Shown: positions 7,251 to 51,225, numbered from the stretch's first letter. The stretch: 64,000 nt of DNA from Nanobdellota archaeon (GCA_022703705.1 JAKLDD010000001.1:2657-66656); one strand, 5' to 3'. The notes: a model not told the origin generated them from the letters alone. Numbers and translations are program-made.

Positions 7251-7529
7251 ATGAAACCATTAATACCCTCATCCAAGGAAAATAAAAGATATCTTTTTAT
7301 TTCTGGAAAAAATTTAAGGGAAAATATTGAAAAAGCAATTCTAGAATTTTCTGGTATTTTAGGTATGAGCAAGTGTGGATTGAGTTTTATTAAATCAGAA
7401 GAAGGAAAAACAATTATCTCTGTAAACAGAGAAACAGTTGATTTGGTAAGAGCAAGCTTGGCTGTTTTTCCTGAAAAAATGGAAGTTCTGAAGGTAAGTG
7501 GAACTTTAAAAGGATTGGAGAGAAAATAA
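7251..7529 (+). CDS. RNase P protein component Pop5/Rnp2-like (tentative)
   Basis: About 92 aa; KRYLFISG and VDLVRASL resemble the Pop5 RYIAFEV and VRAAL regions; weak similarity only. Confidence 0.4.
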   Translation: MKPLIPSSKENKRYLFISGKNLRENIEKAILEFSGILGMSKCGLSFIKSEEGKTIISVNRETVDLVRASLAVFPEKMEVLKVSGTLKGLERK

Positions 7530-7577: not shown

Positions 7578-7844
7578 ATGGGTATTTCTTTACTAAAAAA
7601 AATATTATGTAGAAAAGATTTTGTAGAGCTTTTTGATTCAAAAATTCAGAGCGAGGATAAATTGACAATTAATTCTTATTTTGAAAAAATTCGTGCTGAA
7701 AAAGGAAAAATAATTAGTATAGAGAATATAGAAAGCCGGAGAAGTGAATTTGACGATGGAACATATACAGACAAGCCCGGCATATATACATATACAATCA
7801 ATAGCTACCTAATTCATTACAAATGCCATAAACAGATTTCTTAA
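7578..7844 (+). CDS. hypothetical protein
   Basis: ORF preceded by the AATAATTCTTATAAA promoter-like element about 28 nt upstream. Confidence 0.4.
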   Translation: MGISLLKKILCRKDFVELFDSKIQSEDKLTINSYFEKIRAEKGKIISIENIESRRSEFDDGTYTDKPGIYTYTINSYLIHYKCHKQIS

Positions 7845-7875: not shown

Positions 7876-8127
7876 TTAATCATAAACATTTTTTCTATGT
7901 CCTAACTTAAGAACCAAGAGAATTAATTCTTCGTGTTTAATCTGATAAATTGCACGATAATTCCCAAATCTTAAACTCCAAAGTCCTGCAAGATTTGCTG
8001 TCAGCGGTTTTCCTAGCTGAGGGTTTTTTTCTAATTCATTAAACTTCTTAACTATTCTTTCCTGCTCAACTTTTTCCAGCTTTCTAAAGAAATCTTCTGG
8101 TTTTTTCTCAAGTATTATCTTATACAT
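7876..8127 (-). CDS. RelE/ParE-family toxin
   Basis: 83 aa with a C-terminal LGHRKNVYD typical of RelE; overlaps the upstream antitoxin ORF by 8 nt. Confidence 0.6.
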   Translation of the reverse strand: MYKIILEKKPEDFFRKLEKVEQERIVKKFNELEKNPQLGKPLTANLAGLWSLRFGNYRAIYQIKHEELILLVLKLGHRKNVYD

Positions 8128-8389
8128 CTAAATTAAGCTCTTTTTTAAGTTTAGAAAATTCTATGCCTCTTCCTTTTTCATATTCCTCCAAGGACTGAGC
8201 AATATCCCTCATAGTCTGAGAGTCAGAAAGAATTTCAATAGTTTCTATTAAACTCTCTCTATCAACATTTTTAGGAGAGCAATTATTTAATATTCTAATA
8301 ATCACATCGTTATATGATTCTCTATAATGAATTTTAATCTTATCTAATTTATCTTTCACCTTTTCATCTAGTTGTATTGTTGTTACCAT
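8120..8389 (-). CDS. antitoxin partner of RelE (RelB/ribbon-helix-helix-like)
   Basis: 89-aa ORF immediately upstream of and overlapping the toxin; acidic C-terminus. Confidence 0.5.
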   Translation of the reverse strand: MVTTIQLDEKVKDKLDKIKIHYRESYNDVIIRILNNCSPKNVDRESLIETIEILSDSQTMRDIAQSLEEYEKGRGIEFSKLKKELNLDV

Positions 8390-19139: not shown

Positions 19140-19417
19140 ATAATTTTTTCCCCTCGATGATCTTCTATTTTATTATCGAAAACCTCCGCGAAAGGTTTAT
19201 AAAGCTCATTTTTTTGGTGTATTCTGTTAATTAAGATGAGTGCCTTAACAATATACAAAAATTCTAAGGTATGAAGTATGTAGAAGCAGTCATCTATTTG
19301 TAATTTTTATCAACCAATTTTTATGTTCAAAGCCGATAGTTAGGAATAATGTGTGAAGTGATTTCTTTTCTTATATAGAAATCGCGTAAATTCGATTTAT
19401 AGTCGATATTTATCTAA

Positions 19418-20862
19418 ATCCAGTTGATCCTGCTGGCGGCTGCGGCTCTCTGGTTTGCGTTTAGACATGCAAGTCTTTTTGTTTCTTCGGAAGTGAAAGG
19501 CGAACTGCTCAGTAACACGTAGCTAACCTGCCCTTAAGTCAAGGATACTCTCGGGAAACTGAGGTTAATACTCGATAGGAGATGTACCCTGGAATGATTC
19601 ATCTCTCAAACTCGTGCTTAAGGATGGGGCTGCGGCGGATTAGGTTGTTGGCGGGGTAATGGCCCACCAAGCCAATGATCCGTAAGGGCTCTTAGCGGAG
19701 AGGCCCTGAGAGGGAATCTTAGACACTATTCCCAGCCCTACGGGGTGCAGCAGTTAGGAATCTTCTGCAATGCGCGCAAGCGTGACAGATTGAGCCAGAG
19801 TGCTTTTCAATTGAAAAGCTTTTGTCAAATGTAAAAAGTTTGACGAATAAGGACTGGGTAAGACGAGTGCCAGCCGCCGCGGTAATACTCGCGGTCCAAG
19901 TCGCAGCCATCTTTATTGGGTATAAAACATCCGTAGCTTGCTTAATAAGTTTCTTGTGAAATTTCATATCTCAAATATGGAGCGTGCAAGAAGTACTGTT
20001 GAGCTAGAGACTGGAAGACGTAAGAAGTACGTTTGGAGTAGCGGTAAAATGTGTTAATCCCAGACGGACTAACAACAGCGAAGGCATCTTACGAGGACAG
20101 TTCTGACAGTAAGGGATGAAGGCTAGGGGCGCGAAACGGATTAGATACCCGTGTAGTCCTAGCAGTAAACACTGCACACTAAACATTAGTACCTCCTCGA
20201 GAGGTATTAGTGCTGAAGAGAAGTCGAAGAGTGTGCTACCTGGGAAGTATAGTCGCAAGGCCGAAACTTAAAGGAATTGGCGGGGAGACACTACAACGGG
20301 TGACGCGTGCGGTTCAATTAGATTCTACACCGTGAACCTCACCAGGAGCGACAGCAGAATGAAGGTCAGTCTAAAGGGCTTACCTGACACGCTGAGAGGA
20401 GTTGCATGGCCGACGTCAGCCTGTGCCGTGAGGTGACCTGTTAAATCAGGTAACAGGCGAGACCCACATACATATTTACTATTTGTACAATATGTAGATT
20501 GCCGTGGTAACATGGATGAAAGTGTGGGCTACGTTAGGTGAGTACAGCCTGAATCCCCTGGGCAACACGCGCGCGTCAACGGTGGATACAACGGGATGCA
20601 ACTCTGTAAAGAGAAGCCAATCCCTTAAAGTCCATCTCAGTCTAGATTGAGGTTTGAAACCCAGCCTCATGACACCGGAATCCGTAGTAATCGTTTGTTA
20701 TCAGCGAACGGTGAATATGTCACGGTCTCTTGCACACACTGCCCGTCAAACCAACCGAGTTATGTTATGGTGAAACTTTTCGAAGGAGAACCTTGACATG
20801 ACAAGGTAGGTTAAGTCGTCACAAGGTAACTGTAGGGGAACCTGCAGTTGGATTACCTCCTA
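19418..20862 (+). rRNA. rrs: 16S ribosomal RNA
   Basis: 5' ATCCAGTTGATCCTGCTGGC; internal GTGCCAGCCGCCGCGGTAATAC; 3' GGATTACCTCC anti-SD end. Confidence 0.9.
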
Positions 20863-20967
20863 TATTTATTATTAAAATTGGCAAATTCAAATTGACTTTC
20901 TACATACTCATCTTATTACAGAAAACTTAAAAAACCCATGCGGGCTAAAATAAATGTATGCGGTTTT

Positions 20968-21003
20968 CATAATTTCCGTCGGAGGCAATGAGAGAAATTA
21001 TCT
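20968..21003 (+). other. ITS hairpin with a CGTCGGAGGCAATGAGAG loop
   Basis: ATAATTTC...GAAATTAT inverted repeat preceded by GGTTTT; a paralogous hairpin lies at 21530-21563. Confidence 0.4.
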
Positions 21004-21053
21004 TTCGGTGTCTAGAGGGAAGCTTACAAAAAGAAACCGCAAGGTGTCTTTTG

Positions 21054-21124
21054 GGGCTCTTAGTCCAACGGTAGAACACTTGCCTTGCACGCATGAGATC
21101 CGGGTTCGACTCCCGGAGAGTCCA
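21054..21124 (+). tRNA. tRNA-Ala (anticodon TGC) in the 16S-23S spacer
   Basis: Cloverleaf folded by hand: acceptor GGGCTCT/AGAGTCC, T-arm CCGGG-TTCGACT-CCCGG, anticodon loop CTTGCAC; CCA not encoded. Confidence 0.85.
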
Positions 21125-21529
21125 TTCAAACAAAAGTTTTCTGTATAAGATTAATTAACTGACAATAATCAAACAAACACAACGGAGAAAAACAAAATGA
21201 CAAAAACAATGTTAGAAAAAATCAAAGGAATGAATATTCCAGTTGGAGCTCCAATTGAAATTACTAATAAAGATGGAAATAAGGAATTAAGATATTTTGG
21301 GGGGTTTACAAGTCATGATGATACCATTTGGGCTGGATTAAAAAATAATAGATATAATCCACTAAAACTATCAAATTTAGAAAATATAGATAGGCGATAT
21401 TACAAAAAATAAATCACAATCACAAATCATATTCACATCACGTGAAAAATCAGCTGATAAAATATCAGCACTGGTTCCGAAGCAACTTTCGGAATCAATT
21501 TGAGAATAAGCAAAACAATTCAAGGTTTT

Positions 21530-21563
21530 GCGATTTCCTTCGGAGGCAACTCCAGAAATCGCT
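21530..21563 (+). other. ITS hairpin with a CTTCGGAGGCAACTCCA loop
   Basis: GCGATTTC...GAAATCGC inverted repeat preceded by GGTTTT; paralogue of the hairpin at 20968-21003. Confidence 0.4.
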
Positions 21564-21684
21564 GTTCAGCGATTAGAGGAAAATCGAAAAAAACCAGCAG
21601 GTTGTTTTCATATTCAATGAAATAAGTAACAGAAAATCCCACTTAATAATAATGAAAATTATAATTTAATTTTCAGGCATACTA

Positions 21685-24483
<2,799 letters not shown>

Positions 24484-24585
24484 CATTTTTAGTATACCTG
24501 AAAATTGGATTTTCTGTTACTTATTTATTTGATTTTTATTTCTGATATAATAATACTTAAATACTATTTTTTTATTTTATATATC

Positions 24586-27529: not shown

Positions 27530-27889
27530 ATGAAAGTATATGTAGGAAATCTGCCTTTCAGCGTTGACGATGAAAAACTAAGAGAATTATTCTCATCTTA
27601 TGGTGAGATAGAAGAATCTTCAGTTATCAAAGACAAATTTTCCGGAAGATCAAAGGGATTTGGTTTCGTAACATTCAAAAACGACGATGAAGCTAAAAAA
27701 GCAATTGAAGCTATGAATGAGAAAGAAGTTGAAAGTAGAGCTCTAAAGGTTAATGAAGCTAAACCTCTTGACCCAGACGCACCAAGACCTCCAAGAAGAA
27801 ATTTCGGAGGAAATAATAGAAGAGGCGGTTTTGGCGGTGGGCAAAGAAGAGATTTTGGAAACAGTGGCGGAAATAGAAGAAGATTTTAA
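27530..27889 (+). CDS. glycine/arginine-rich RNA-binding protein with one RRM domain
   Basis: RNP-2 VYVGNL and RNP-1 KGFGFVTF; C-terminal RRNFGGNNRRGGFGGGQRRDFGNSGGNRRRF; AAGGAGG Shine-Dalgarno 12 nt upstream. Confidence 0.8.
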   Translation: MKVYVGNLPFSVDDEKLRELFSSYGEIEESSVIKDKFSGRSKGFGFVTFKNDDEAKKAIEAMNEKEVESRALKVNEAKPLDPDAPRPPRRNFGGNNRRGGFGGGQRRDFGNSGGNRRRF

Positions 27890-30047: not shown

Positions 30048-32744
30048 TTAATTTTTTCCATTAGGCTTATCTTTATATTTAAAAAATTTATAGATTTCTC
30101 CAAATACAAGAACAGAAGAACTAATTAAAATAACTAAACCCATCTCCTTAAAAGACAACGGAACAAATTCGAAGACTCTTGCTAAAAAAGGTATGTAAAG
30201 AACACACAAAAGTGCAATTACAGATGCTGATAATGCATAAATTACCCATTTATTTGAAAGAATTTTTATTTTAAAAATTGATTTATGCAGGGAACGCATA
30301 TTAAAAACATTAAAAAATTGAAAAAATGACATAGATACAAATGCAATTGTTCTTGCTTTATCTACCCCCTGATGAAGAAAATTATTAAACAAAGGTATTG
30401 TTCCAACAGCCATTAAACCTGCCATTAAAAGTAAGAAAAATACAAGTTCTTTATTTAGTATTTTTTCTTCTTTTTTCCTTGGAGGCTCATTTAAAACATC
30501 ATGATGTCCGGGCTCCATTGCCAAAGAGATTCCAGTAAATGCATCTGTTACAAGATTCAAGTAAAGCAATTGAATTGGAAGCATAGGGAGTGGGAGGCCC
30601 AAGGATAATGAAGAAATAATTGTAACATCTTCAGCAACATTAGTTGTTACAAGATAGAAGCTTGTTTGTCTTATATTTTGAAATACAACTCTTCCCTCTT
30701 CTATAGCATTTACAATAGAAGAAAAATTATCATCTGCTAAAACAATTTCAGAAGAATCTCTTGCAACATCTGTACCAATAACACCCATTGAAATTCCAAT
30801 GTCTGCTTTTTTAAGTGCAAGTGCATCATTAACCCCATCTCCAGTCATTGCAACAATTTCTCCTTGTTCCTGAAGAACTTCAACAATTTTTATCTTCATT
30901 TTAGGAGTCATTCTAGCAAAAATATTTGAATCTCTAACCGCATTTTTAAATTCTGTTTCATTCATCTTTCTCAATTCTTCTTCTGTAAATGCAGGAATTT
31001 TTCCCATATCCAACCCAATTTCTTTAGCAATCGCGATTGCTGTTTCTCTATGATCTCCTGTCTGCATTATAATCCTTATACCTGCGTTTTTTGCTTTTTG
31101 AACTGCTTCCTTAACTTCTTTTCTTGGAGGATCTTTCATACCAATTAAGCCAAGAAAAATCATTCCCCCAACAAGCTTTTCAGAAACAGAAGTTGTTCCT
31201 CTTGGAACATCTCTATAAGAAAATGCCAAAATTCTCATTCCTTGCTTTGCCAAATTAACTGCTTTTGTAAGCAGGATTTTTTTATCTTTATCTGTAAGAG
31301 TTATTTTTTTATCTTTATCCAAGTAATAAGAAGAGCGTTTCAAAATAGCTTCAAATGCTCCTACTGAAATTAAACTTTTTTTACCGCTTTTATTTTCTAC
31401 TAATGTTGCTCTGAATTTAAATTCAGAATTGAATGGCAAATCATCCAAGACCTTTTCAGGCATATTTTCTTTTTTTAAACCTGCTTTTTTAGCCAAAACT
31501 AAAAGAGAAACTTCTGTTGGATCTCCAACTATTTCATATTTTCCATCTTCTTTTATCAAAAGATTTCCTTTATTGCAAAGCGCAGATGAACCCAATAATC
31601 TTTTCAAAATTGGAAAAGATAGTGGATTTAATTCTTTGTTTTTCTGATAAAACTTTCCAATTGGTTCCCATCCATCTCCGCTCACTTCAAACTCTCCTTC
31701 AGAAGTTATTATTTTCTGCACTGTAATTGAATTTTTAGTTAAAGTTCCTGTTTTATCTGTTGCAATAATTGTAGCAACACCCAAAGTCTCAACTGCAGGT
31801 AGATGTCTTATGATTGCTTTTCTCTTAGCCATTCTTCTTGCACCAATTGCAAGAACAATAATTAACACAGCAGGCAAACCTTCTGGGATTCCTGAAACTA
31901 AAGAAGCAACTGTAAATAAAAACATATCAATAAAAGCCATTCCCCTTATGAAAAAACCAATTATGAATGTTAAAAGAGCTCCAATAACAGCAACAACTCC
32001 CATTTGCATTGATAGTTGAGCCACTTTTTTACTAAAATGTGTTTTTGGTTGAACAATTTCCTGGATGGATTTTGCAACTTGCCCAATTTGAGTTTTATTT
32101 GCAGTAAAAACCACAATTGCTTTTGCTTCTCCAGATACAACCATGGTACCCATAAAAACCATATTTGTCCTATCTGTTATAGAAGTGCTCTCTGGAAGAA
32201 TTTTTATATTCTTTTCTTGGGGGAATGATTCTCCTGTTAATGAAGCTTCTTGTGTTTTAAGATTATTAATTTCGATTAAACGAGCATCTGCAGGAACTTT
32301 ATCTCCCTCTTCTAAAAAAATAACATCTCCTGGGACAATTTGTGAAGAAGGAACTTTTATTAATTCACCATCCCTATAAACTTTTGCATAAGAAACAATC
32401 ATGGTTTTAAGGAGATTTATTGCTTTCTCTGCTTTTCTTTCCTGAAAAAAACCAACAATTGCATTTATAATTACAACAACAAAAATAACAATTGCATCAA
32501 CTAAATGATTAATTAAAATAGAAATTATTGTTGCAAAAATAAGAATATATACTAATGGGCTATGAAACTGCTTAAAAAACTTAAAAATTAAAGGTTTTTT
32601 CTTTTTTTCTGAAATTACATTCAAACCCCTCTCAGCAAGAACTCTTTTATATCTTTCAGTTGTTAACCCTTTTTCAGAGGAATTTAGTTCTTTAAAAATC
32701 TGGGATAGAGATTTTGAATGATGATTATTAGTCACCTCAACCAT
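30048..32744 (-). CDS. P-type cation-transporting ATPase (type II, Ca2+-ATPase-like)
   Basis: DKTGTLT phosphorylation site, TGDGVNDALALKKADIGISMG hinge, PEGLPAV in TM4; 898 aa. Confidence 0.9.
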   Translation of the reverse strand: MVEVTNNHHSKSLSQIFKELNSSEKGLTTERYKRVLAERGLNVISEKKKKPLIFKFFKQFHSPLVYILIFATIISILINHLVDAIVIFVVVIINAIVGFFQERKAEKAINLLKTMIVSYAKVYRDGELIKVPSSQIVPGDVIFLEEGDKVPADARLIEINNLKTQEASLTGESFPQEKNIKILPESTSITDRTNMVFMGTMVVSGEAKAIVVFTANKTQIGQVAKSIQEIVQPKTHFSKKVAQLSMQMGVVAVIGALLTFIIGFFIRGMAFIDMFLFTVASLVSGIPEGLPAVLIIVLAIGARRMAKRKAIIRHLPAVETLGVATIIATDKTGTLTKNSITVQKIITSEGEFEVSGDGWEPIGKFYQKNKELNPLSFPILKRLLGSSALCNKGNLLIKEDGKYEIVGDPTEVSLLVLAKKAGLKKENMPEKVLDDLPFNSEFKFRATLVENKSGKKSLISVGAFEAILKRSSYYLDKDKKITLTDKDKKILLTKAVNLAKQGMRILAFSYRDVPRGTTSVSEKLVGGMIFLGLIGMKDPPRKEVKEAVQKAKNAGIRIIMQTGDHRETAIAIAKEIGLDMGKIPAFTEEELRKMNETEFKNAVRDSNIFARMTPKMKIKIVEVLQEQGEIVAMTGDGVNDALALKKADIGISMGVIGTDVARDSSEIVLADDNFSSIVNAIEEGRVVFQNIRQTSFYLVTTNVAEDVTIISSLSLGLPLPMLPIQLLYLNLVTDAFTGISLAMEPGHHDVLNEPPRKKEEKILNKELVFFLLLMAGLMAVGTIPLFNNFLHQGVDKARTIAFVSMSFFQFFNVFNMRSLHKSIFKIKILSNKWVIYALSASVIALLCVLYIPFLARVFEFVPLSFKEMGLVILISSSVLVFGEIYKFFKYKDKPNGKN

Positions 32745-32794
32745 AAAAAATAATATTCAGCAAACCTTAAAAACCCTTTTATATCTATATTTTA

Positions 32795-33220
32795 GTAAGT
32801 CAGGTAGTTAACATCGGAGTTCAGCTCTTAAATGAGTAAATGTCGATAATATAACGATATTGAATTCTGAGGAAGGTCCGGACACCCTTAACAATTAGTT
32901 AAGAAAAAGTTGTTGGAGAAATTCCAATTGTCGCGAGGCAAAGCTCTGGTATAGAGACGAGCGTATTAAGTTACGGTGGAACGAGCATCTCAACTGGTGC
33001 AAGTCTAAATGACGCATAGTGGAATGTTAACACGAACTGTCTGTCTTGAAAAAGAAACAAAGTTCGACAGAATCTGGCCTATTCCTGACTTACAAAAGAC
33101 CCCTTCTGGTTTCTTTTGTAAACTTCCTCAAAGCACTGAAAAACAATTTCCAAATGCCTCCTGTGAAATTGTAGAAAATATTTTATTGAGCAGATTCAGA
33201 ATCCTATTCGTAATTCTGAA
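32795..33220 (+). ncRNA. rnpB: candidate RNase P RNA
   Basis: GAGGAAGGTCCGGACACCC at 32869-32887 resembles CR-I GAGGAAAGUCCGGGCUC; CGACAGAATCTGGCCTATTCC at 33065-33085 resembles CR-V ACAGAANCCGGCUUA, and the two can pair as P4. Multiple hairpins (CTTAAC..GTTAAG, TTGGA-GAAA-TTCCAA, CGAACT..AGTTCG) in an ORF-free region that is more GC-rich than the flanking sequence. The 3' boundary is uncertain. Confidence 0.5.
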
Positions 33221-33222
33221 GA

Positions 33223-33294
33223 TGGGGATCCCGGGAGTCGAACCCGGCACACCATGATCTTCAGTCATGTGCTCTCCCGCTGAGCTAGACCCCC
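33223..33294 (-). tRNA. tRNA-Phe (anticodon GAA)
   Basis: Reverse complement folds as GGGGGTC-TA-GCTC..GAGC-A-CATGA-CTGAAGA-TCATG-GTGTG-CCGGG-TTCGACT-CCCGG-GATCCCC-A. Confidence 0.85.
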
Positions 33295-33419
33295 AAGAAA
33301 CGGTGTTTCTAAAAAAACAAATATCGAGTGTTTTTTAAAACTATTGTATTAGAAAAATATTTCAAAACATTTATAAAACTAAATAGATTAAATTAAATAT
33401 ACTAATAAAAGAGGATAAA

Positions 33420-49746: not shown

Positions 49747-49795
49747 AGATAAAAAGACTGCACATTCAAAGTAGATGCAGAATATATTATAACCT

Positions 49796-49870
49796 GGACC
49801 GGTAGCTCAGCAAGGTAGAGCGCTAAGGTTTTTATTTTGGAGGAGAGATGTTCAAATCATCTCCGGTCCA
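49796..49870 (+). tRNA. tRNA-Lys (anticodon TTT), slightly irregular anticodon arm
   Basis: Hand fold: acceptor GGACCGG/CCGGTCC, D-arm GCTC..GAGC, T-arm AGATG-TTCAAAT-CATCT, anticodon region CTAAG-GTTTTTAT-TTTGG. The loop is either 7 nt with U37 or 8 nt. Confidence 0.6.
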
Positions 49871-49875
49871 TCATA

Positions 49876-51225
49876 ATGAACAAGAAATTCAAATATAAGA
49901 TAGAAGAGTATGCTGAGAAAGCCATAGAACAAGCAAAAAAAATTGGAGAGCCTGTTACTTGCAGATGTGGTGAAACTCCTGGAGGAACAAAGCATATAGA
50001 AAATTTTAATGATAACATCAGAAGTTACTTTATCTATCTTGCAGTAAAAGAAAAAGGTTATCCTGCGAGGCATATACAAACTAGAGATAATATGGACCCA
50101 TTTAGAAAACTTCCATCGGGGTTCTTTGATTTAAATAAAAAATGGCACACATCTTCTTTAAAATTAATTAAAGAGTATAATAAATATGTTGGAACCCCTC
50201 TTTATTTTATCCCAGACCCGCTGGGATGTTGTGAAAATTATGCTGAACATTTCAGAAAAATCTATGAAAGCGAATGTGATTTGATGGGATTAAAAGACAC
50301 CCAGTACTTTAGCACTGAAGACCTATATAGAACAGGAAAATTTAATCCGTATCTTAAAAAAATATTTGAAAAAGCAGAATTAGCAAGAGAGATAGATTTG
50401 AATATAGAGAATACAAAGCCCAAAGATTATATTCCCGTGTGAGTTATATGTGAAAAATGTAAAAAGATAACTGGCAGAATAAAACATATAAATCTTAAAA
50501 AAGAAACTGTAGAATATGTCTGCACTGGAAGAAATTTGACTTCAAAGTATCCTGCAAGGGGGTGTGGAAACACTGGAACTATTGATTGGAAGAATGGAAA
50601 TACGAAAATGGATTGGGAATTTGAATGGCCTGCTCAAATGCTAATATTTAAAACAACCTTAGAACCTTTTGGAAAAGAACATTTTATTGGTTCTTGGCCT
50701 TTTGCAAAACAAGTAATACTTAAGATATATAAAAAAGAGCTCCCATTAGTGTTTTTTTATGAATATTTTCTGGTTAATAAGCAAAAAATGGCGACTAGAC
50801 ATGGTAATGTAACTCCCCTTTCTACTTTATTAAAAGTCCTTGAACCAGAAGTTATCCGTTACTTATATACTAAGCGCCCAAGAAAACAAAGAAACCTTAC
50901 TCCTCAAAATATAATTAACTTAGTTAATGAATTTGATTCTGCTGAAAAAATCTGGTTTAATTTAAAGAAGGCAAAAAATGAAAAAGAGTTTGAAAAAATA
51001 AAGAAAAATTATGAGTTTGCATTCTTAAAAAATGTTCCAAAAAAATTTCCAAATAGAATTTCTTATCCAAGATTGATTAAACTTTTAAATAGATTTTCTA
51101 ACAATAAAGTAAAAGATATTGTTTCAAGAGAAAAAAACTTGGAAGAAATAGATTATAGCTTAAAAAGAATTGAATTAATAAAAAATTGGATAAAACTATT
51201 CTCTTCACAAAGTTTTAAAAAATAA
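49876..51225 (+). pseudogene. degenerate class I LysRS paralogue whose frame continues through one in-frame TGA (50440-50442)
   Basis: VTCRCGETPGGTKHIENFND vs FTCAAGISPSGIIHIGNFRD; KMDWEFEWPAQM vs KLDWKVDWPMRW; LEPFGKEHFIGSWPF vs FEPGGEDHATPGGSF; KMATRHG replaces KMSGSKG. ORFs 49837-50442 and 50536-51225 share a frame, and homology runs across the stop. Confidence 0.55.

Follow-up and report, generated by a model that had tools for sequence, protein, structure and literature searches.

Background

RNase P is the enzyme that trims the front (5') ends of tRNAs. In a 64,000-nt stretch of archaeal DNA (hereafter the window), a sequence-only reading had proposed that an unannotated structured RNA at 32795-33220, lying between a P-type ATPase gene and a tRNA-Phe gene, bears signatures of the RNA subunit of this enzyme. 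A scan of the whole window against Rfam at gathering thresholds reported 16S rRNA, tRNA-Ala, 23S rRNA and tRNA-Phe and no RNase P. The locus thus raises the question of whether the interval encodes an RNase P RNA, where such a gene would begin and end, and how its product would compare with the described types of this RNA.

Here we report that window positions 32795-33093 (plus strand) very probably, at a probability of about 0.95, encode the catalytic RNA of a ribonucleoprotein RNase P, the host being a DPANN archaeon of the Woesearchaeota type, a reading based on comparative sequence analysis. The proposed identity was borne out by a full-length match to the archaeal RNase P family of Rfam (RF00373), by 18 homologues and by covariation. 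The gene is an ordinary, essential housekeeping gene that encodes a structural variant of specialist interest.

Results and discussion

The interval between the P-type ATPase and tRNA-Phe genes

Both flanking genes are real, and the 476-bp gap between them holds every motif quoted in the sequence-only reading. The main features of the locus are the following.

30048-32744, minus strand: P-type ATPase gene, confirmed; diverges from the RNase P RNA
32795-33093, plus strand: predicted RNase P RNA gene, 299 nt from the P1 5' end to the P1 3' end (RF00373, 18 homologues, covariation, model R1)
33009-33257, plus strand: 82-aa ORF overlapping the RNA 3' end, antisense to tRNA-Phe
33221-33295, minus strand: tRNA-Phe (GAA) gene (ARAGORN; Rfam tRNA, 61.1 bits); convergent with the RNase P RNA

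As had been noticed, the stretch is richer in G+C than its surroundings, with 40.1% in the RNA against 30.6% in the window and 31.3% in the ATPase gene. The minimum free energy computed for 32797-33093 (297 nt, the RNA minus its first two bases) is -83.2 kcal/mol, compared with an average of -64.7 kcal/mol for shuffled sequences (z = -3.83), none of the 200 shuffles being as stable as the native sequence.

The archaeal RNase P search that had been suggested was run as a permissive E-value Rfam scan limited to 32600-33320, and it returned a full-length match to RF00373 (model positions 1-288) at 32836-33093, with 65.3 bits and an E-value of 8e-18, a score that does not reach the RF00373 gathering score of 84. 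We take this 65-bit match as real and the cut-off as conservative, because with the RF00373 model real archaeal RNAs have been found to score 53.6-228.6 bits and random genomes at most 14.3 bits (Chan et al. 2012, PMC3579882). Ten of the 18 homologues pass the gathering score (85-123 bits) and eight fail it; the sequences below 84 bits are the window copy and its eight closest relatives. In the alignment of the window RNA to the model, the RNA skips 43 positions of P12 and 35 of P15-P17, insertions occur after P5 and before CR-V, and the P3a/P3b hairpins, the hairpin at the P5.1 position and P19 are handled as insertions. We rejected the 5' boundary of the match, 32836, at which P1 and P2 are forced onto the P3a/P3b hairpins, whereas covariation places P1 and P2 at 32795-32812. 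The low score is attributable to the P12 and P15-P17 deletions, the insertions and the mis-aligned 5' end, and not to decay of the core; the gene is missing from standard annotation because lineage-specific extra hairpins lower its RF00373 score below the cut-off.

Homologues and covariation

When 185,579 species-representative genomes were scanned with a pattern of the core motifs, 76 loci emerged, 18 of which could be aligned end to end with the window RNA, at 60-89% identity to it. These homologues come from metagenome-assembled genomes (MAGs) mostly labelled Woesearchaeota, Pacearchaeota or Nanoarchaeota. The 23S rRNA of the window is 96.5-97.4% identical to that of two Ca. Woesearchaeota MAGs, members of a phylum placed in the kingdom Nanobdellati, i.e. 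DPANN, and by this rRNA identity the host is assigned to the DPANN archaea.

The proposed structure, including the P4 pseudoknot, was scored on the alignment of the window RNA with its 18 homologues (19 sequences). In total, 94.4% of the pair cells are paired, against 31-45% when the 3' partners are shifted by 1-3 columns; both sides change in 65 of the 92 pairs, some of them in the P4 pseudoknot, and none of 500 column shuffles matched any observed measure. Given the alignment alone, RNAalifold returned the same P1, P3 junction, P4, P7, P8, P9, P15 and P19, in a structure with 49 of 70 pairs compensated. As read from the alignment, compensatory substitutions across 18 other species show purifying selection on all helices.

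A covariance model (R1) built from the 19-sequence family alignment found exactly one match in the window, at 32795-33093, so that the gene is present there in a single copy. Family members score 223-317 bits with R1, and every other RNase P RNA retrieved scores at most 99 bits.

DPANN-style archaeal RNase P RNAs were also met in six MAGs labelled Paceibacterota, 'bacterium' or Methanosarcinales (L044, L073, L012, L027, L053 and L062), which suggests mislabelled or contaminated public bins; the RNAs of L044 and L073 are full members of the 19-sequence family.

Catalytic domain

The elements of the catalytic domain, together with P5 and the hairpin after it, all on the plus strand, are listed in the order of their first base.

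32795-32804, plus strand: P1 5' strand, GTAAGTCAGG, pairing with CCTGACTTAC at 33084-33093
32807-32812 and 33026-33031, plus strand: P2 strands, GTTAAC/GTTAAC, 6 bp
32816-32868, plus strand: enlarged P3, a three-way junction with basal stem 32816-32823/32861-32868
32824-32837, plus strand: P3a hairpin with conserved loop UUAAAU (covariation)
32840-32860, plus strand: P3b hairpin (covariation)
32869-32883, plus strand: CR-I, GAGGAAGGTCCGGAC (GAGGAAGGUCCGGAC), by exact-string search; invariant in 19/19
32874-32876 and 32878-32882, plus strand: P4 5' strand, with a bulged U at 32877
32883-32886 and 32996-32999, plus strand: P5 strands, 97% paired
32887-32903, plus strand: optional hairpin at the P5.1 position, present in 11/19 (window included), absent in 8/19
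33000-33002, plus strand: P5-P15 linker CAA ('A anchor'), 3 nt
33003-33013, plus strand: mini P15 hairpin, 3 bp and a 5-nt loop
33014-33025, plus strand: CR-IV/J15-2, GCAUAGUGGAAU, aligning to RF00373
33033-33066, plus strand: hairpin at the P19 position, between P2' and CR-V, GAAA-capped in the window
33067-33093, plus strand: CR-V, ACAGAATCTGGCCTAT (33067-33082), also ACAGAAUCUGGCCUAU, with the P1 3' strand region (RF00373, alignment, exact-string search)
33073-33080, plus strand: P4 3' strand, within CR-V

All five universal conserved regions (CR-I to CR-V) are present in the window RNA, its P1-P4 core fold is supported by compensatory changes in the 18 homologues, and P1, P2 and P3 enclose the catalytic domain, as in the universal core. 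Both P1 (10 bp) and P2 (6 bp) are 100% paired, with both-side changes in six and three pairs, respectively. The 8-bp P3 is 85.5% paired, and both sides have changed in 6 of its 8 pairs, in all four pairs of P3a and in all six of P3b; the three-way junction formed by these stems was predicted independently by RNAalifold. P1 and CR-I are 65-80 nt apart in the family, compared with about 26-45 nt in most other RNase P RNAs retrieved.

It had been suggested that the CR-I-like and CR-V-like strings pair as P4. This pairing holds and covaries, both in the 19 sequences and in the 76 loci: the pseudoknot comprises 8 bp, 99.3% paired in the 19 sequences, with U32877 bulged, and its two variable pairs are CG:9/GC:9/UA:1 and AU:13/CG:3/GC:2. 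The third A of GAGGAAA is a G in this lineage (GAGGAAGGUCC), a change always matched by U-to-C in GGCCUA; over the 76 loci this pair is A-U in 55, G-C in 21 and mixed in none.

The sequence CAAG (C206 A207 A208 G209) is invariant in the 19 sequences, and the short P15 is 100% paired, with both-side changes in two pairs. In the outer stem of P19 (alignment columns 299-304/329-334) all six pairs change on both sides, and inner pairs alternate as UA:9/CG:9 and UA:11/CG:7; RF00373 aligns this stretch as a 31-nt insertion. For the inner P19 stem the RNAalifold register, at columns 307-309/326-328, was adopted in place of an earlier one that was 63% paired. L15, P16 and P17 are not present in the window RNA, where the RF00373 alignment has its 35 deleted model positions, and by inspection of the window RNA no complementary segment was seen for P6. 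A P6-like or loop-loop pairing of the P5.1-position hairpin was considered and discarded, as no conserved complementarity was apparent by eye and the hairpin is missing in 8/19 sequences.

Specificity domain

Besides P5, listed above, five elements, again on the plus strand, were assigned to this domain.

32908-32912, plus strand: P7 5' strand (covariation)
32913-32927, plus strand: P8 hairpin with GAAA loop, TTGGAGAAATTCCAA (exact-string search; covariation)
32928-32941, plus strand: P9 hairpin with GCGA loop (covariation)
32942-32995, plus strand: specificity-domain core, comprising P10/P11, CR-II, P12, CR-III and P11'/P10'/P7' (RF00373 columns)
32962-32975, plus strand: minimal P12, 4 bp plus a 6-nt loop

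P7, P8 and P9 are 97-100% paired, with both-side changes in 5/5, 5/5 and 4/5 pairs, respectively; P8 corresponds to the TTGGA-GAAA-TTCCAA hairpin with a GNRA loop singled out by the sequence-only reading. CR-II (AUAGAGACGA) and CR-III (UGGAACGA) align to the CR-II/CR-III columns of RF00373, and their residues are invariant in 19/19. To judge from this alignment, the two regions would form the interleaved T-loop modules expected within a specificity domain bounded by P7 and P10-11. In 16 of the 19 members P12 consists of 4 bp and a 6-nt loop; a 4-bp P12 leaves no room for a K-turn extension, and no K-turn was seen by eye elsewhere in the window RNA.

Gene boundaries and the 3' spacer

Candidate signals were found on both sides of the RNA, together with two further elements downstream.

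32767-32773, plus strand: TATA-like box TTAAAAA, starting at -28 from the P1 5' end and preceded by an A-rich, BRE-like aaaCC
33090-33099 and 33112-33121, plus strand: hairpin TTACAAAAGA/TCTTTTGTAA around the T-rich run (folding)
33109-33117, plus strand: first T-rich run after the gene, GTTTCTTTT, starting at +16; likely transcription stop
33191-33220, no strand assigned: spacer element CAGATTCAGAATCCTATTCG, adjoining the tRNA-Phe 3' end and outside the RNase P RNA
33195-33202 and 33213-33220, no strand assigned: hairpin TTCAGAAT/ATTCTGAA within the spacer element (folding)

The 5' end proposed earlier, 32795, coincides with the first base of the P1 5' strand, and the 3' end moves from 33220 to 33093. 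All 19 members have a TATA-like box, reading TTAAAAA, TTTATAA or TTAAATA, whose first base falls between -28 and -31 and which follows A-rich sequence; 16 of the boxes were found by regular expression, and the remaining three have TTAAATA in the same place. By the archaeal TATA/BRE spacing rule, the -28 box would act as promoter. At the other end, 17/19 members have a T-rich 8-mer beginning no more than 2 nt from the P1 3' end; in the window it begins at +16, where the run at 33109-33117 is a putative terminator. Because the T-runs come after P1, the gene ends at 33093, or at about 33117 at the latest, and not at 33220; the window RNA may possibly carry a short 3' trailer, reaching 33117 at most. 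With the box at about -28 on one side and the putative T-rich stop on the other, the gene is predicted to be its own transcription unit, and 33094-33220 is spacer, outside the RNA.

A second copy of a CR-V-like string had been thought to blur the 3' boundary. The string, CAGAATCCTATTC, is indeed present, at 33197-33209 by exact-string search and within the span 33195-33216 quoted for it, and the boundary nevertheless resolves to 33093: as an alternative CR-V or 3' end the second CAGAATC copy was rejected, as it is without the GGCC of the P4 3' strand and the relatives all end at P1. No second P1 3' strand exists anywhere in the window.

One relative has three copies of TATTCCTGACTTACA, the final 15 nt of the RNase P RNA gene (L009:2100-2460, minus strand), as part of a tandem unit of about 106 nt that also has a CAGATTC...ACAGAATCTTATTCG element, found once in the window (33191-33210). 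These repeats could be att-like scars of integration or duplication at the RNA 3' end, or an assembly artefact, the latter considered because the scaffold has an N gap there.

The adjoining tRNA-Phe gene and the overlapping ORF

The tRNA-Phe gene, whose window copy does not encode CCA, is presumed to yield a substrate of the adjoining RNase P. tRNA-Phe(GAA) adjoins the RNase P RNA, downstream of it, in 14 of the 18 relatives, down to about 60% RNA identity (L010, L006, L054, L011, L013, L073, L038, L022, L019, L065, L061, L044, L009 and L035). It lies on the strand of the RNA in 13 relatives, the gap measuring 48-212 nt in eight of these and about 850-1200 nt in the other five, and is convergent with it in L035 and the window, where it appears to have been inverted.

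Such conserved adjacency, together with the fact that the region fills the intergenic gap between ATPase and tRNA-Phe, is what could be expected if one of the flanking genes had its 5' leader, UTR or a cis-regulatory structure here. This explanation seems to us extremely improbable, as the ATPase is divergent on the opposite strand, is not a conserved neighbour and is replaced by varying upstream sequences among the relatives, and in the window the tRNA is convergent. The RNA is preceded by its own box at -28, and in co-oriented relatives a T-run directly follows it and the tRNA has a separate TATA-like box. The same observations, with T-runs following P1, led us to reject a joint transcript of RNase P RNA and tRNA-Phe, and the two genes seem to have separate promoter boxes.

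The stretch had also been described as ORF-free. Mechanical ORFs of 40-82 aa do overlap it, and no frame is conserved in the relatives. The longest of them, the 82-aa ORF at 33009-33257 (plus strand), has been annotated as a gene in three public assemblies for this organism (L001, L002), and the region could accordingly be read as coding sequence. We consider a protein product hardly credible here: the ORF shares just the final 85 nt of the RNA and then crosses the 3' half of tRNA-Phe in antisense, the longest open stretches in the relatives vary in strand, frame and length, and the substitutions are of the RNA type, with paired compensatory changes. The 82-aa ORF is probably a spurious gene call, as judged from the relatives' sequences.

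An rRNA operon (16S, tRNA-Ala, 23S) at 19417-24498 lies on the strand of the RNase P RNA, 8.3 kb upstream, and in L009, L019, L022 and L061 such an operon is found upstream on the same strand, 1-4.4 kb from the RNA; 5S rRNA was not detected at Rfam thresholds anywhere in the window. The class I lysyl-tRNA synthetase is represented by two ORFs, 49837-50442 (profile positions 5-172) and 50536-51225 (profile positions 199-355), which could reflect a frameshift, an element lying between them or a gene that is truly split. Just upstream of them, at 49795-49872, ARAGORN reported a 'tRNA-???' with a 2-nt anticodon. The RRM_1 domain is uncommon in archaea; a 119-aa protein with a eukaryote-type RRM_1 is encoded at 27530-27889 (plus strand), according to the Pfam annotation precomputed for L001, the identical public contig.

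Protein partners and proposed mode of action

One protein subunit is encoded in the window.

7251-7529, plus strand: Pop5 (RNase P protein component 2), 92 aa; PF01900, 28.1 bits (cut-off 23)

The Pop5-like gene noted earlier is confirmed by this PF01900 score and by its best PDB match, 6k0a_A, RNase P component 2 of M. jannaschii (E 1e-3). It heads the otherwise canonical archaeal exosome/proteasome superoperon, with PsmA, SBDS, Rrp4, Rrp41, Rrp42 and Rpb6 downstream. Rpp30, Rpp29, Rpp21 and L7Ae are absent among the roughly 40 ORFs scanned in the 64-kb window, which makes Pop5 the single hit of the four or five subunits expected, in a scan that covered these 64 kb and has no bearing on the rest of the genome; Rpp30, Rpp29 and Rpp21 are presumably encoded elsewhere in the genome. 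The 88-aa ORF at 7578-7844, beside Pop5, was considered as a further reduced RNase P subunit and dismissed, having no Pfam and no meaningful PDB match. A ParE-family toxin and a VapB/DUF7557-like antitoxin (7876-8389, minus strand) lie between Pop5 and PsmA in the superoperon.

Nanoarchaeum equitans has lost RNase P and transcribes leaderless tRNAs. By this precedent, the locus might be the decaying relic of an RNase P RNA in an archaeon whose tRNA 5' ends arise through a protein-only enzyme or leaderless transcription, and both the score below the Rfam gathering threshold and the heavily reduced substrate-binding periphery (no L15/P16/P17, a tiny P12) could be taken in this sense. We judge such decay very improbable: every helix is kept by compensatory substitutions in 19 species at 60-89% identity, the residues of CR-I to CR-V are invariant, and the low score arises from insertions and the mis-aligned 5' end rather than from a decayed core. 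The putative promoter and terminator and Pop5 are retained as well, and HARP, the protein-only alternative, has been reported absent from all DPANN genomes surveyed (PMC6380272).

For a functional RNase P RNA, the M. jannaschii holoenzyme structure (PMC6565675) suggests how the window RNA might act. The pre-tRNA would be held between the 'T-loop anchor' of CR-II/III, on whose T-loops the tRNA elbow would stack, and the middle A of the P5-P15 linker, on which the acceptor end would stack, and its 5' leader would be cleaved at the P4 metal site. No pairing with CCA is expected, because L15 is absent. Proteins would compensate for the missing RNA periphery, and the lineage-specific P3 three-way junction and P19 helix may stabilise the catalytic domain. 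The authors of that structure contend that a P19 stem would get in the way of the (RPR)2 dimer (Wan et al., PMC6565675), and on this analogy we speculate that the enzyme with a P19-bearing RNA may be monomeric and not a dimer of the type-M kind.

Implications for annotation and genome-reduction surveys

Because threshold-based Rfam searches miss the gene and a probably spurious 82-aa ORF is called over it, surveys of genome reduction in DPANN could list this lineage, in error, as devoid of RNase P RNA; with the family alignment and model R1 the gene is recovered cleanly. The locus shows what a small-genome archaeon has lost from this RNA (L15/P16/P17/P6 and the K-turn arm of P12) and what it has gained (a branched P3 and P19), and it is relevant to the exchange of roles between RNA and proteins in the evolution of RNase P, overturning nothing.

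Comparison with known RNase P RNA types

A paper of August 2026 lists only types A, M and T (PMC13462272). Type M is without L15, P16, P17, P6 and, classically, P8, which a variant in Archaeoglobaceae retains (PMC3579882). The window RNA shares with type M the CR-I to CR-V core, the P4 pseudoknot, the 3-nt P5-P15 linker, a P15 reduced to a short hairpin and the lack of L15, P16, P17 and P6. Unlike classical type M it has P8, as has the Archaeoglobaceae variant, and its P8 covaries; it adds the P19-position helix and the three-way-junction P3, to which about half of its family adds the P5.1-position hairpin. With type A it has P8 in common, and it lacks the L15, P16, P17 and P6 pseudoknot of that type. 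In types A and M, P12 is long and carries a double K-turn to which L7Ae binds (PMC5499556), and a K-turn extension beyond P12 is conserved in the majority of RNase P RNAs from archaea (PMC6565675), in contrast to the 4 bp and 6-nt loop of the window RNA. In type T (Thermoproteaceae) the greater part of the specificity domain is gone and P2 has 3 bp, whereas the window RNA keeps the specificity-domain core and a 6-bp P2.

The type-M holoenzyme of M. jannaschii (6K0A/6K0B, PMC6565675) resembles the system described here in its Pop5 homologue and small P15 terminal loop and, as predicted, in its T-loop and A anchors and the absence of RCCA pairing. Its RNA differs in being without P8 and P19 and in having a P12.1/P12.2 K-turn extension bound by L7Ae and Rpp21, and its Pop5 counts 134 aa against 92 aa in the window. 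Another trimmed DPANN RNase P RNA, that of Nanopusillaceae (Ca. Nanobsidianus; PMC12974513, supplement), lacks P2 and P3, whereas in the window RNA P2 is intact and P3 enlarged. A mini-P15 together with a hairpin before ACAGAA also occurs in Iainarchaeia, other Woesearchaeota, Nanoarchaeales and one Nanohaloarchaeon among the 76 loci, a combination for which the spacing of the search pattern itself selected.

Eukaryotic nuclear RNase P RNAs (human H1, yeast RPR1) likewise have P19 between P2 and P4, and share with the window RNA an elaborated P3, a reduced P15, the lack of L15 and proteins of the Pop5 family (PMC6565675, PMC12974513). The eukaryotic P3 is, however, a helix-internal loop-helix (ES3.1/P3a) and not a three-way junction, and the window RNA, unlike its eukaryotic counterparts, keeps an A anchor and P5 of the archaeal/bacterial style; the extra elements of the two are equivalent in position only.

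Each single element of the window RNA is already known and has a precedent: P19 in archaea and the loss of P16/P17 are on record (PMC12974513), and P3a and P5.1 are catalogued as expansion positions (PMC12974513, main text and supplement). In the open-access literature we found no description of their combination, that is of the P3 junction with a K-turn-less P12, nor of any specific DPANN or Woesearchaeota RNase P RNA structure. That the 19-member Woese-/Pacearchaeal family, with its M-like catalytic domain plus P8 and P19, its P3 junction with a UUAAAU loop and its K-turn-less P12, constitutes a distinct architectural type outside A/M/T is a tentative proposal that we hold to be rather unlikely. 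If it were correct, the P3 junction would be a new platform for protein binding or tertiary contacts, and if the P19 argument of Wan et al. also held, the enzyme would be a monomeric, L7Ae-independent, eukaryote-like minimal archaeal RNase P. In its architecture the window RNA combines an M-like catalytic domain with an A-like P8 and the P12 of neither type, and it is an exact fit to none of A, M and T.
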